Assembly (NCBI GenBank): GCA_965250285.1
Contig: OZ252299.1
Coordinates: 2,240,001 to 2,304,000, forward strand
Reading direction: 5' to 3'
DNA: 64,000 nt
Source of the DNA: Myxococcota bacterium
Lineage (GTDB): Bacteria > Myxococcota_A > UBA9160 > UBA4427
Shown: one piece after another, positions 16,677-23,750 of the stretch
How positions within the stretch are numbered: position 1 is the first letter of the stretch
Layout of the letters: each line of letters opens with the position of its first letter
Notes under the pieces: model-generated
What the model saw: only the letters and a program-made list of their open reading frames with translations
Told to the model about the DNA's origin: nothing
The model's database searches: none
Position numbers and translations under genes: made by a program

Positions 16677-17597
16677 TCACCGGGCCAGCCAGCCCGCGTC
16701 GATCCAGCGCGCGAGCCAGCCTGCCGCGAGCGCGGCGGGCTCTTCGACCGCCGCGTCGCCCAGGCGCTCGTCGAGCCACAGACCCAGATCGCCGAACGTC
16801 TCGCCACCGGCGACGATTCGAGCCAGCGCTTCGGCCTCCAGTGCATCGACACTGCGAAACACGGCTCGCTCGCGCTCGCGCCAGACGATCAGCGTCTGGG
16901 GCTCGCTTCGCCGGTTGGGCGCTGCCGCATCGCCCCGACGCTGGGCGGTCACCATCTCACCGACCGACCAGCTGAAGGTGAGACGCGCGAACGCCGGCAC
17001 GACCTCGAGCGCGATCTCCGACCAGGCTTCGGGCGCGACCCGGGCGAGGTCGGCGCGCTGCAGTGGCGTCGCGTCGGGGGCATCGAAGACGTCGGCGAAG
17101 GCCCACTCGAGGCGCGCGATGTCATCTACACCCGGGAAGCGCTCACGCGCGAATGCGGCCACGGGATGCTCGGTCAGAAAGTCGGCAAAGGCGTGGCCGA
17201 GGTCTCGCAGGCTCGGCGAGCTCGACGGATGGGCGACGAGGTAGGCCGTCACCAGATCGTGAAAAGCCGCCTCGCCGCAGAGCCAGGCGACGGTCGGATA
17301 GTCGCCCTCGAGCACCTCGAGCAGCCGCGCGAAGTAGGCCTGGGCGTAGACGTCGAGCCGCGCAGGCGCCGCGAGTCGATCGTCGCTGCGCACGGTGCCG
17401 GCGAGGGCGGCGGCGGGATCGGACCAGGCGTCGAGCCAACCCGGCACGCCGGGCCGTCCTTCGAGCGCCGGCTGTACGCCGGTGGGTGCCGTCACCAGCG
17501 CGCGCAGCAGACGCTGCATCTCGACGAGCGATTCGGGCGGCGCAGCGGCGACCGGGGCGCGAGAGGAGACGTGGGCGTCGCCGGGTTCGGTGCTCAT
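16677..17597 (-). CDS. DUF2063 / BufC-HvfC-type RiPP partner protein
   Basis: RLDVYAQAYFARLLEVLEGDYP, HPSSSPSL and DIARLEWA. ATGA overlap with the DUF692 gene. Confidence 0.85.
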   Translation of the reverse strand: MSTEPGDAHVSSRAPVAAAPPESLVEMQRLLRALVTAPTGVQPALEGRPGVPGWLDAWSDPAAALAGTVRSDDRLAAPARLDVYAQAYFARLLEVLEGDYPTVAWLCGEAAFHDLVTAYLVAHPSSSPSLRDLGHAFADFLTEHPVAAFARERFPGVDDIARLEWAFADVFDAPDATPLQRADLARVAPEAWSEIALEVVPAFARLTFSWSVGEMVTAQRRGDAAAPNRRSEPQTLIVWRERERAVFRSVDALEAEALARIVAGGETFGDLGLWLDERLGDAAVEEPAALAAGWLARWIDAGWLAR

Positions 17598-18559
17598 GCG
17601 GCCGCCTCTGCGCACGCGCTCGCCATGAGGCGGCGCGCACGCTGAGCCTCTTCGATCAGGCGATCCAAGGTCGGAAGCTGGTCGTCCCATTCGATCAGGG
17701 TCGAGACGGGGCCAGTCCGCCGGATGACGCGCTCGTAGAGCCGCCACACCTCGTCGCGGACGGGGTGATCGTGGGTATCGATGAGCAGCGGCCCGCTCTC
17801 GGAGTGGCCCGCGAGGTGAATCTGAAAGATGCGCTCGGGTGGGATCGCGTCGAGGTACGTCTCTGCGTCGAAGCCGTGATTGTGCGCGCTCACGAATACG
17901 TTGTTGACGTCGAGGAGCACGCCGCAGTCGGCCCGCTCGGCGAGCGTGGCGATGAACTGCCACTCGTCGAGCTCGTCTTCTTCGAACGAGAGATACGAAG
18001 ACACGTTCTCGACCGCGATGCGGCGGCCGAGTCGATCCTGCACGCGACCGATGCGATCGGCGAGCCAGGCGAGCACGGCTTCGCTCGCGGGGAGCGGCAT
18101 CAGGTCGTGCAGGTGGGCCCCGCCGACGCCCGTCCAGCACAGGTGATCCGAGAGCCAGGCGGGCTCGACACGCTGGGCGAGCGATGCCAATCGGTCGAGA
18201 TAGTCGTCGTCGAGCGGATCGGTCGATCCGAGATTCATGGACACGCCGTGCATCACGACCGGTCGCTCGGCACGCACATCGTCGAGCAGGCGCCCGGGTC
18301 GCCCGCCGCGCACCATGAAGTTCTCTGAGATGACTTCGAGGAAGTCGATCTCGAGATCGCCCGCGCGCGCTCGTCGCAGCACGTCGTCATAGTGCGGCAC
18401 GCGCAGCCCGATGCCGACGCCCAAAGCGGGCGCCTCGACAGGACGTGCGGGGCGGGGTGTCGGAGGCGGCGGCATGGACAGACCCGGGTCGGACACCGTG
18501 AACGCACGCCGTCGCGAACGGAGCCGCATCGGCCCCGCCCGCGACGACCGTGGGCTCAC
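17594..18559 (-). CDS. DUF692 multinuclear non-heme iron oxidase (MNIO, BufB-like)
   Basis: GIGLRVPHY, EVISENFM, HGVSMNLG, SDHLCW, ENVSSY, DVNNVFV, QIHLAGH, DTHD and TLIEWD. The start may be somewhat downstream. Confidence 0.93.
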   Translation of the reverse strand: MSPRSSRAGPMRLRSRRRAFTVSDPGLSMPPPPTPRPARPVEAPALGVGIGLRVPHYDDVLRRARAGDLEIDFLEVISENFMVRGGRPGRLLDDVRAERPVVMHGVSMNLGSTDPLDDDYLDRLASLAQRVEPAWLSDHLCWTGVGGAHLHDLMPLPASEAVLAWLADRIGRVQDRLGRRIAVENVSSYLSFEEDELDEWQFIATLAERADCGVLLDVNNVFVSAHNHGFDAETYLDAIPPERIFQIHLAGHSESGPLLIDTHDHPVRDEVWRLYERVIRRTGPVSTLIEWDDQLPTLDRLIEEAQRARRLMASACAEAAA

Positions 18560-18816
18560 TTCTCGGCGAGCGTGCCGCCGGCGGCCTCACACTCTTCGGG
18601 CGTCAGGTAGACCCAGCCCTTGCCCTTGCAGCTGTTCTGACCGCCGCAGTCGTGGCTCGCGGTGTGGCATTCGCCCTGACCCTTGCAGGCGTTGCCGCCG
18701 TCGCACTTCACCTTGCCTTCGCTGGTGCCGCCGTGCTCGTCGGCGGCAGCGGTGCCAGCGGCCCCGAGCGCAAACAGCGCCGCGGCGGCCGAAGCGATGA
18801 CGGTCTTCTTGTCCAT
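18556..18816 (-). CDS. bufferin-type (BufA2-like) Cys-rich RiPP precursor with signal peptide
   Basis: Signal peptide followed by KCDGGNACKGQGECHTASHDCGGQNSCKGKGW...EECEAAGG (6 Cys, repeated GxNxCKG). GAGGAG RBS. Immediately upstream of DUF692. Confidence 0.88.
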   Translation of the reverse strand: MDKKTVIASAAAALFALGAAGTAAADEHGGTSEGKVKCDGGNACKGQGECHTASHDCGGQNSCKGKGWVYLTPEECEAAGGTLAEK

Positions 18817-21700: not shown

Positions 21701-22240
21701 TCATGCGGTCAGCTTGGCGAGCAGCTCGTCCGCGACGCGTTCGGCGATCACGACCATCTCGTCGTCGGTGCGGTCCTGGATCGGGTGCTCGACGTAGACC
21801 GCGTCGGGCTCACCGCCCAGCGCGCGGGCCTGCACCTCGGCCCCGTCCTCGAACTCGACCGTGGCGACGAACGCCGAAGGGATGCCTCGCGACTCGAGAT
21901 CCAACGTGTCGTGCACACTGCACGACGTGCAGCTGCCTCAATCGGCGAGGGCTTCGATCACCGCGTCACAACGGGTCGCGATCTCCTGGCGCAGATCGGC
22001 CGGCGCAGGCTTGGTGAACGTCGGCTTGCGGTAGCGGACCACGTCGGCCCCATGCTCGCGCAGGCGCGCCTCGAGACGGTCGAGGAAGACGTCGCCCCGG
22101 GGCTTCGAGATGTCGAGCAGGCCGACGGTGCGGCCCTCGAACCCATCGAGCCGGGCGGCCCGCGGTCGGCCGTCGGGGGCGAGTTCGCCGGTCGGGTCGA
22201 GCAGCAGGCGCTCGCTGCGCGGGTCGATCGTTTCGCTCAT
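21701..22240 (-). CDS. UGSC-family selenoprotein (179 aa; in-frame UGA at 21940-21938 read as Sec)
   Basis: The two ORF-track fragments are in the same frame and join as VIEALAD-U-GSCTSCSVHDTL. A stem-loop follows the UGA. Confidence 0.85.
21908..21926 (-). promoter_or_regulatory. putative bacterial SECIS element
   Basis: GUCGUGCA-GUG-UGCACGAC: an 8-bp stem starting 11 nt after the UGA with a G-containing apical loop. Confidence 0.6.
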
Positions 22241-22304
22241 GATCGCTCCTCGGCTGCGGCCGTGCGGGACGGCCCTCGGGTGGACACGGTCGAGGCGGCC
22301 GCCT

Positions 22305-23750
22305 TCACGGCCGAATCTCGCGCGTGACGGGCTGACTGCCGATCTCGCCGTTCGCCCACCCGCCGATCATCGCAGAGAAGAGCCCCGCACCGCCACCGCA
22401 GTGCACGACGAGCAGCCCCTCCGGACGAAACTTCGGCAACATCGCGTCCTTCACGTGCTCGGGGGCCCCTTCGGCGATGCCCCCCGCACCCCGCACGAGC
22501 TCGGCACCCGGGATCAGCAGCAGCTCGTGGAGCCGCTTCTTGAGGTCGTCCTTCGACCAGCCCGCGTCGCGGAACACGCGCGAGTGATCGGGGGCCACGG
22601 CGAGGATGCAGTCGAAGGCCATGATCAGCTTCGGGTGATGCAGCGTGCGCAGGTTGACGGCGAAGCTTCGCGCGAGGCTCTCGGGGTCTCGCGAGAGCTG
22701 ATCGACGATGCTCCGCGGGCCCTCGCCCGGAAACACCGTCACGGTGTCGACGCCCGGCTCGTAGCCGTAGTCGGCCGAGAGCGGCGTCCACGGCGACGCC
22801 TCTTCGTCTTCGGCAAAGCAGAACGAGAGCTTGCCCGGGTTGCCGAACGTCGCGCGATCGACCTCGCCCGGCCGACCGCCGCCGACGTTGCGCACGACGA
22901 GTTGCAGGGCCCGGCCGATCGTCGAGTTCGCGCGGTTGCCCTGCCCGAATACGTTGCCAGCGGCGTTCATCCCGATCCGCCGGCGCACGCCTCCGTTCAC
23001 GATCACGACCGGCGACACGGGCATCGTCGTCGCCAAGAGACCGTGCATGTTGAAAGCGTCGGTGCAGACGGCCTCGACGGCGGCGAGCACGACCGGCAGA
23101 TACTCGGGCAGGCAGCCCGCCATCACGGCGTTGACCGCGACCTTCTCGACCGTGCACGGCGCGAGGTCGGGCGGCACCACCGCGACCACCTCGTCGGGCT
23201 TGCGCAACGTGCCCGCGAGCATGCGCGCGACCCGCGAGCGCGTCGGTGGCACGAGCGGCAGGCCATCGCTCCAGCCGCGCGCGAACATGGCCTCGATCGG
23301 ATCCTCCTGTTCGCCGAGCTCGACGGGCCGCGATGCGAGCGAAAGGCCACCGAAGCGCACGGCGAGCTCGGGGGCGAGTTCGGGATCGACTGAACGCGAG
23401 CCACAGCCCGGCCGCTGCTCGGGCAGCCCTGCCCCGAGGCCTTCGAGCCCGGTGACCGCCTCCCACTCGCCGCGATGCCAGCCGATGGCCCGCTCGGCCT
23501 CGCGGCCGCCCGAGCGGCGCACGATCGTGGGCACGGCCTCGATGCCGCTGCGCCACGAATGCTCGAGCTCGCGGTCGTCGACGACGTCACCCGCCGCAGG
23601 AAAGCTCGGATCGTCCTGGGTGAACACGACGAGGCCAGAGCGCTCCCCGATCTCGGCGAGCACCGGCTCGACGAGCTCGCAGGTCGGGCAATCGCGTTTC
23701 ACGAAGGCGACCAGCCCTTCGTCGGGCAGCGTCGCTGCGGTGCGGGCCAT
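22305..23750 (-). CDS. thioredoxin-like (CxxC) domain fused to a conserved UGSC-associated domain
   Basis: N-terminal KRDCPTC and IEAVPT, linker PGCGS, then WSDGLPLVPPT, VAVNAVMAGC and GNRANSTIGRALQL. Confidence 0.75.
   Translation of the reverse strand: MARTAATLPDEGLVAFVKRDCPTCELVEPVLAEIGERSGLVVFTQDDPSFPAAGDVVDDRELEHSWRSGIEAVPTIVRRSGGREAERAIGWHRGEWEAVTGLEGLGAGLPEQRPGCGSRSVDPELAPELAVRFGGLSLASRPVELGEQEDPIEAMFARGWSDGLPLVPPTRSRVARMLAGTLRKPDEVVAVVPPDLAPCTVEKVAVNAVMAGCLPEYLPVVLAAVEAVCTDAFNMHGLLATTMPVSPVVIVNGGVRRRIGMNAAGNVFGQGNRANSTIGRALQLVVRNVGGGRPGEVDRATFGNPGKLSFCFAEDEEASPWTPLSADYGYEPGVDTVTVFPGEGPRSIVDQLSRDPESLARSFAVNLRTLHHPKLIMAFDCILAVAPDHSRVFRDAGWSKDDLKKRLHELLLIPGAELVRGAGGIAEGAPEHVKDAMLPKFRPEGLLVVHCGGGAGLFSAMIGGWANGEIGSQPVTREIRP

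Follow-up and report, generated by a model that had tools for sequence, protein, structure and literature searches.

Two adjacent open reading frames (ORFs) on the minus strand of the window, by which is meant the whole 64,000-nucleotide stretch of myxococcotal DNA that was analysed, raise the question of whether they belong to one selenoprotein gene and, if so, what its product might do. The UGSC family, its selenocysteine (Sec) and cysteine forms and its link to a domain called 'Unknown_1' are already known. UGSC was reported to rank fifth in abundance among the selenoprotein families of the Global Ocean Sampling (GOS) data, with 255 sequences (PMC2398784), and a 2026 review still places it among uncharacterised proteins (PMC13188914). 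The annotation itself is routine, as it concerns a selenoprotein family that is already known and whose genes are split by gene callers. It is the constant partner, the predicted complex with Sec at its interface and the link to the selenoproteins GrdB and PrdB which make the function of the family experimentally addressable. The passages of openly accessible literature that were consulted contain neither a link between UGSC and GrdB/PrdB nor a UGSC complex.

A single UGSC gene with a predicted selenocysteine codon

The two ORFs are a single gene of the known UGSC family (Table 1). If the in-frame TGA is read as U, positions 21701-22240 of the minus strand form one ORF of 179 aa with the motif U101-G-S-C104-T-S-C107, which translation table 11 cuts into ORFs of 100 and 71 aa. 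The original prediction had quoted the minus-strand sequence around a TGA at 21940-21938 as the junction of both ORFs, and readthrough at this codon does yield one 179-aa protein. The family label it proposed is also borne out: the joined protein scores 151.9 bits against NF041046 (cut-off 125, model positions 1-147 of 147), as compared to 61.6 and 52 bits for the halves taken singly, both below the cut-off, and it scores 153.1 bits against PF24696 (cut-off 25). The query protein as used, like its alignment and model, carries one extra last residue, the terminal TGA having been read as U. Among 120 homologues listed from the database most are about 100 aa long, the length that results where gene callers end an ORF at a Sec codon. 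A search for sigma-70-like promoters found none, and the one terminator-like site equals chance expectation.

Table 1. Features of the UGSC locus, in positions of the window
Feature	Position	Strand	Basis
UGSC-family selenoprotein gene, 179 aa and TGA stop (21701-21703)	21701..22240	-	NF041046 151.9 bits, PF24696 153.1 bits
In-frame TGA, predicted Sec101 of U-G-S-C-T-S-C	21938..21940	-	homologue column, contigs of 3 runs
GAGGAG, ribosome-binding-site-like, 5 nt before ATG	22246..22251	-	sequence
Putative SECIS hairpin GUCGUGCA-GUG-UGCACGAC, 8-bp stem, GUG loop; starts 11 nt and loop 19 nt after the UGA	21908..21926	-	comparison and bSECIS criteria
Alternative 6-bp hairpin CUGCAC-GUC-GUGCAG, overlapping the SECIS hairpin	21918..21932	-	function unsupported
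Gene of the partner (481 aa), with a thioredoxin-like domain, a linker that contains Cys and an unnamed core; end 64 nt upstream of UGSC start	22305..23750	-	homologues
C21-P-T-C24 in the thioredoxin-like domain of the partner; beyond it, linker Cys116 (RPGCGS)	23679..23690	-	CPTC in 117/120 and RPGCGS in 117/120 close homologues
Partner core (residues 136-481), 'Unknown_1' domain of Zhang and Gladyshev 2008	22308..23345	-	aligned segment, model

To judge from sequence comparison, the UGA of the UGSC gene is almost certainly decoded as selenocysteine. The genome contains selA, selB, selD and a tRNA-Sec with a UCA anticodon, all above cut-off, and within the class PF24696 is matched in 175 and selB in 178 of 225 genomes. 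In SelD of this genome (C1:5312234-5313154, minus strand), Cys takes the place of Sec in the N-terminal active motif. The column of the UGA holds TGA in 28 and TGY in two of the 30 best-scoring loci of the class, and exactly one TGA is present in 59 of 60 UGSC matches of the phylum sample. Cys occupies this column in all 80 loci, mostly from actinomycetes, of a scan whose search pattern was able to detect Cys forms only. Cys forms are found in named strains of Embleya, Yinghuangia and Streptomyces, and such actinomycete forms permit experiments without Sec expression systems. Hyphomonas neptunium is mentioned as carrying the family in PMC1976440. A read error as the origin of the TGA finds no support, in that assembled contigs of all three runs that were compared cover it without variant letters, the runs being from one study that is possibly the source of this very DNA. 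Each of the three findings that the original prediction had named as refuting it, absent Sec machinery, homologues without Cys or Sec at the column and a TGA due to read error, was looked for and not observed.

The stretch D100-U101-G102-S103-C104 is invariant in 32 of 32 aligned UGSC sequences, and the Cys at Sec+3 (C104) is kept in 32/32 and 64/64 aligned sequences. The invariant motif is U/CxxC and the third Cys is replaced by Trp or Tyr in other subfamilies, which makes a general three-ligand metal site unlikely. The redox or metal chemistry that had been suggested for UxxCxxC is weakened in its metal part to this extent.

A second UGSC copy in this genome has a TGA at the same column. It belongs to a UGSC-partner pair of the U-G-S-C-T-S-W type without a thioredoxin domain (C1:3019995-3021546, minus strand) and is clustered with genes for a MarR regulator and several amidohydrolases as well as with a cupin-like and a CoA-ligase-like gene, an arrangement that recurs in relatives (e.g. 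loci L170, L174 and L175).

The SECIS hairpin and its overlapping alternative

The 8-bp hairpin that had been predicted to begin 11 nt after the UGA is present at 21926-21908 of the minus strand, and its spacing had been likened to that of the E. coli fdhF SECIS. By folding energy it does not stand out from shuffled versions (z = +0.30 to +1.11), and two of four folding windows have the alternative hairpin as their minimum-energy fold. In a 60-nt folding window the SECIS hairpin is nevertheless favoured over the alternative, at -12.4 versus -7.6 kcal/mol and with a pairing probability of 0.91 versus 0.085. The bSECIS criteria ask for a stem of 4-16 bp, a loop of 3-9 nt that starts with G and then G or U, a distance of 16-37 nt to this loop and an energy of at most -7.5 kcal/mol (PMC13188914, Fig. 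2 legend), and the UGSC hairpin lies within these bounds, with a 3-nt GUG loop, an 8-bp stem, 19 nt and -10.9 kcal/mol. Folding energy as evidence for a SECIS was set aside, not being significant against the shuffles, and the support for this putative element is comparison with relatives.

The inner six base pairs of the stem are intact in 30/30 Sec copies versus 8 of 83 Cys-motif matches, a set in which 82 genes were expected, so that one is probably a chance match. The loop starts with GU in all 30 Sec copies. The Ser codon is AGT in 30/30 Sec copies versus 1/83 Cys matches, and AGT is rare, making up 3.9% of the Ser codons in this genome. Where the encoded peptide is identical (xGSCTSWS followed by V or L and HD), all seven Sec forms have AGT and eight base pairs, and the 16 Cys forms all have AGC, with eight pairs in two of them. 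Among 24 distinct sequences, seven carry a two-sided change of one stem pair from C-G to G-C (0/500 shuffles), which tracks one subfamily and may therefore be a single event. SelB is predicted to bind the GUG-loop hairpin.

The alternative hairpin does overlap the SECIS hairpin (21932-21918), as was pointed out in the original prediction, but a functional role for it is not supported: across the same 24 distinct sequences it shows no two-sided change, and two of its six pairs are broken in seven sequences that form one subfamily. The idea that the two hairpins act as a regulatory switch was rejected on these grounds.

A scan of the genome for the hairpin geometry retained 23 of 1249 coding-like TGA sites, among them the two UGSC genes, one peroxiredoxin-like gene and two of the three PrdB-like genes (see below); the remaining sites look like chance. 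The peroxiredoxin-like gene (C1:1311786, minus strand) has an in-frame TGA in W-U-P-P-C together with an 8-bp hairpin and is probably another hidden selenoprotein.

The partner protein

The main clue to UGSC function is the partner gene upstream, which the original prediction had overlooked. A domain termed 'Unknown_1' was described in 2008 as linked or fused to UGSC (PMC2398784), and the segment of it given in Fig. S1A of that work agrees with the partner core when judged by eye. Pfam and NCBIfam searches of the partner returned no family, and no solved relative was detected by sequence either with the partner, which gave weak PDB thioredoxin matches (E 0.29-0.76), or with the core profile. 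Homologues of the partner that share 72-74% identity carry the labels Myxococcota or Deltaproteobacteria. Conserved residues of the core are D162, C213, T241, T242, N275, R280, C311, E314 and H389, of which C213 and C311 are each kept in 89/96 sequences.

Of 38 Sec and 80 Cys motif matches, 37 and 79 respectively have the partner core no more than 1 kb away on the same strand; the 38 derive from 40 class loci, two of them without a motif match, and many repeat the 30 best class loci. Across 251 genomes UGSC is found in 36, all within the 37 that carry the partner, and copy numbers of the two are equal in several genomes (7/7, 6/6, 5/5 and 3/3), the positive genomes all being of one class and therefore not independent. 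One genus (genomes G202, G207, G209 and G210) has UGSC and partner on different contigs. A UGSC part is borne by 26 of 150 core representatives, in both orders, several of these being cut at the Sec position. In two such fusions (P0350 and P0366) the motif is degenerate (W-S-G-V and C-G-A-S), so that some members of the family may have lost the redox pair. Seven proteins of 616-741 aa (P0255, P0260, P0268, P0279, P0312, P0344 and P0345) consist of two tandem partner cores and have no UGSC part.

Among 96 core sequences, fusions to further redox domains comprise Redoxin (7), AhpC-TSA (6) and ferredoxin-thioredoxin reductase (1). All 25 thioredoxin-fused partners go with the three-Cys type of motif, versus none of 88 Trp or Tyr types, although the 25 are one subfamily and not independent events; most partners are without a thioredoxin domain. 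Small CxxC proteins of about 92 aa without a Pfam match occur near Cys-form pairs (9 and 5 actinomycete loci; e.g. L056:5660-5932, L060:2093-2368 and L073:7853-8131), and it is possible that these are the electron donors for partners without a thioredoxin domain.

The model of the core is confident (pLDDT 97.1), and a structure search with it reached Z 5.8-5.9 at best, over one subdomain and with no clear fold; the ESM Atlas returned unnamed clusters only. The only long structural matches are to class I fumarate hydratase (Foldseek E 4.5e-4), at Z 4.3-4.7 over 176-191 residues and an rmsd of 5.0-5.8, and values of Z below 8 are not meaningful according to the tool. Compared to 30 fumarate hydratase alpha sequences (PF05681) the core stays below 1% in HHalign, the best HMM E-value among 96 sequences is 0.035, and the CQDTG motif of fumarate hydratase is absent from the partner. 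The partner profile likewise reaches 0.3% in HHalign against GrdE (one sequence). Neither GrdE/PrdA nor fumarate hydratase has sequence support as a homologue of the partner, and both were rejected.

The predicted UGSC-partner complex

UGSC and its partner very probably form a physical complex, according to structure prediction. The prediction was made with orthologues that naturally carry Cys (the L050 pair), whose identity to the proteins of the window is 46-47%, using the partner core without the thioredoxin domain and an alignment of 64 sequences per chain. The complex scores 0.84, as compared to 0.00 for the best of three controls, against a mark that 116 of 157 solved complexes attain, as do 2 of 215 mismatched pairs, figures that hold only approximately for custom alignments. 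Contacts agree between runs to at least 88%, and the partner has a pLDDT of at least 91. The interface of this pair includes Cys95, the equivalent of Sec, with residues 98-100 and 102-104 of the partner. Its equivalents in the window's proteins are U101, G102, S103, T105, S106, C107 and H110 on UGSC, and H236-L238, A240-T242 and N288 on the partner. The equivalents of C104, C213 and C311 do not figure among the interface residues that are named. The highest-confidence contacts are mainly pairings of N-terminal strands.

Predicted fold of UGSC and its likeness to GrdB and PrdB

In the AlphaFold2 model of UGSC (pLDDT 92.5) five strands strictly alternate with five helices, and Sec follows strand 3 at the start of helix 3. 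The thioredoxin topology is beta-alpha-beta-alpha-beta-beta-alpha, which the model does not fit, and the predicted fold of UGSC is flavodoxin-like, not thioredoxin-like. A thioredoxin-like fold was guessed for UGSC in 2008 (PMC2398784); the idea of a thioredoxin-fold selenoprotein was rejected on the topology of the model. A fold search gave generic flavodoxin- or Rossmann-like matches only, the best at Z 11.9 (8s7v_H, rmsd 3.2, 132 residues aligned) being tied with others at 11.6 and 11.1. The best 50 matches contain no thioredoxin and no GrdB or PrdB entry, which excludes nothing. By sequence no solved relative of UGSC was detected (best E 0.14), and the ESM Atlas gave no usable match outside its own family.

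The Sec region of UGSC resembles the C-terminus of selenoprotein B of glycine and proline reductase. This resemblance was tested with 25 PF07355 loci, and HHalign gives it 90.9% over 64 columns, versus at most 0.98% for 30 column shuffles, with Sec aligned on Sec and a P of 1.1e-6 that belongs to a single comparison, picked because of a likeness suspected beforehand. With every Cys masked, the comparison still yields 70.4% (P 3.9e-5), and two unrelated alignments give 1.4% and 0.1%. The likeness spans about 64-80 residues, and a full-length GrdB adjoining a GrdE scores 18.4 bits. A PF07355 search of the window's UGSC protein gave no match at E up to 0.1, and PF07355 is absent from the 18 families matched by 32 UGSC members.

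This genome also carries three PrdB-like selenoprotein genes on the plus strand, with V or L before U-P-x-C (C1:121328, 3706377 and ~3939510). The pyruvoyl proprotein model PF09338 (GrdE/PrdA) has no match in this genome, although the same model finds GrdE in genome G058, and PF07355 is matched in 74 of 121 class genomes; the PrdB-like genes may therefore represent another orphan Sec system. A complete GrdE-GrdB pair is present in that one genome of the order (G058:C182:2651-4956, plus strand), and none was found in 151 other genomes of the phylum that were searched.

Proposed function and rival explanations

It is likely that UGSC and its partner constitute a thiol-recharged redox enzyme. The more specific proposal, drawn by analogy with GrdB and PrdB, is that of a two-subunit, thioredoxin-recharged, Sec-dependent reductase, which has about an even chance of being correct; that its reaction is a bond cleavage of the Grd/Prd kind is given the same chance at best, or slightly less. 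UGSC would dock on the partner core in such a way that Sec101 faces the conserved H236-G-L-x-A-T241-T242 loop, and the selenolate of Sec101 would attack a small organic substrate at the composite site, as described for PrdB, in which the other subunit holds the substrate that Sec attacks (PMC11229817). A bond between carbon and a heteroatom (C-N or C-S) might then be reductively broken, Cys104 would resolve the adduct to a selenenyl sulfide, and an electron relay through Cys107, the linker Cys116 and the CPTC thioredoxin domain would bring about re-reduction, the partner standing in for the pyruvoyl subunit GrdE/PrdA. Against GrdB/PrdB-like chemistry counts that Cys replaces Sec in many lineages, whereas the U151C variant of PrdB is inactive (PMC11229817).

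The substrate is probably an intermediate of organic-compound catabolism. Neighbour genes at 120 loci and in the window, from ORFs chosen by a crude filter, include amidohydrolases, SDRs, luciferase-like monooxygenases, P450, enoyl-CoA hydratases and TauD, and this neighbourhood suggests catabolism of organic compounds. No fixed pathway neighbour was found at these loci, the neighbour families being large and variable and none constant for the subfamily of the window's gene. Elsewhere in the window a Bufferin-type copper-binding RiPP cluster (16677-18816, minus strand) comprises a BufA2 precursor (NF050166, 82.3 versus 60 bits), the MNIO maturase BufB (NF050167, 364.8 versus 310 bits) and an HvfC-like gene with a score under the cut-off.

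The UxxC motif, the thioredoxin, Redoxin and AhpC-TSA domains fused to the core and the lack of fixed pathway neighbours would also suit a protective oxidoreductase, that is a peroxide, sulfoxide or mixed-disulfide reductase whose partner would position the oxidised substrate or serve as a scaffold for redox reactions, and thiol oxidoreductases make up most selenoprotein families in the GOS data (PMC2398784). This explanation is nevertheless unlikely, as fold and sequence favour GrdB/PrdB over peroxiredoxin or thioredoxin, and both the up to seven diverged paralogous pairs per genome and the many conserved polar residues of the core fit substrate-specific enzymes better. The invariance of the Cys at Sec+3, as expected of a resolving residue, and the repeated fusion of the core to redox domains argue against a non-redox role in which Sec would be the covalent nucleophile of a hydrolysis, group transfer or isomerisation, with Cys104 and the thioredoxin domain serving only protection or repair. 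This reading is less probable still, even though amidohydrolases, enoyl-CoA hydratases and CoA transferases are frequent neighbours, most partners have no thioredoxin domain and the UxxCxxC of GrdB has been cited as a guard against accidental oxidation (PMC6778437).

It is doubtful that U101, C104 and C107, perhaps with C213 or C311 of the partner, serve as interface ligands of a metal or Fe-S cluster in the manner of hydro-lyases of the class I fumarate hydratase type. The CxxCxxC-like spacing, the long structural matches of the core and its two conserved Cys point in this direction, but most of the loci examined have Trp or Tyr in place of the third Cys, the fumarate hydratase matches fall short of a meaningful Z and have no counterpart in HHalign, and the equivalents of C213 and C311 lie outside the named interface residues. 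That the TGA is a genuine stop codon, or arose as a pseudogene lesion or through a sequencing error, leaving two separate or dead ORFs, is scarcely credible, since the column is conserved across the class with Cys as its substitute elsewhere, the hairpin is retained in TGA forms only, the Sec machinery is complete and the contigs agree, against which stand only the unexceptional stability of the hairpin and the length of about 100 aa of most listed homologues.

Returning to the reductase proposal, it is put forward tentatively, with somewhat less than an even chance, that UGSC and its partner represent an undescribed, pyruvoyl-independent class of selenoenzyme in which the Sec domain of GrdB/PrdB, stripped of their other parts, is docked on a 345-aa substrate-binding subunit without a clear structural relative among solved proteins and is recharged by a fused thioredoxin. 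If this is true, the presence of as many as seven paralogous pairs in one genome would point to a family of reductases, each specific for its substrate, among bacteria that are abundant in soil and aquatic habitats.

Comparison with known systems

The partner core shares with the alpha domain of class I fumarate hydratase (PF05681) a weak structural match and is not a member of that family. A parallel is offered by GrdB, GrdF and GrdH, the selenoproteins B of glycine, sarcosine and betaine reductase, and by PrdB of D-proline reductase (all PF07355), from which UGSC differs in its length of 179 aa, lacking their N-terminal parts and not being a member of PF07355, and in a partner that is unrelated to GrdE, in a genome where no pyruvoyl subunit was found. 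Like UGSC, these proteins have a strand, U-x-x-C, a helix ending in E-x-x-G-x-P, a further strand and H-P followed by I or L. GrdB has UxxCxxC, as does the UGSC subtype of the window, and GrdB and PrdB pair with a second subunit, as is predicted for UGSC. The window gene is a full member of the UGSC family (NF041046/PF24696), named 'UGSC-containing protein' in PMC1976440 and PMC2398784, and within this family its subtype is distinguished by the third Cys and a separate, thioredoxin-fused partner.
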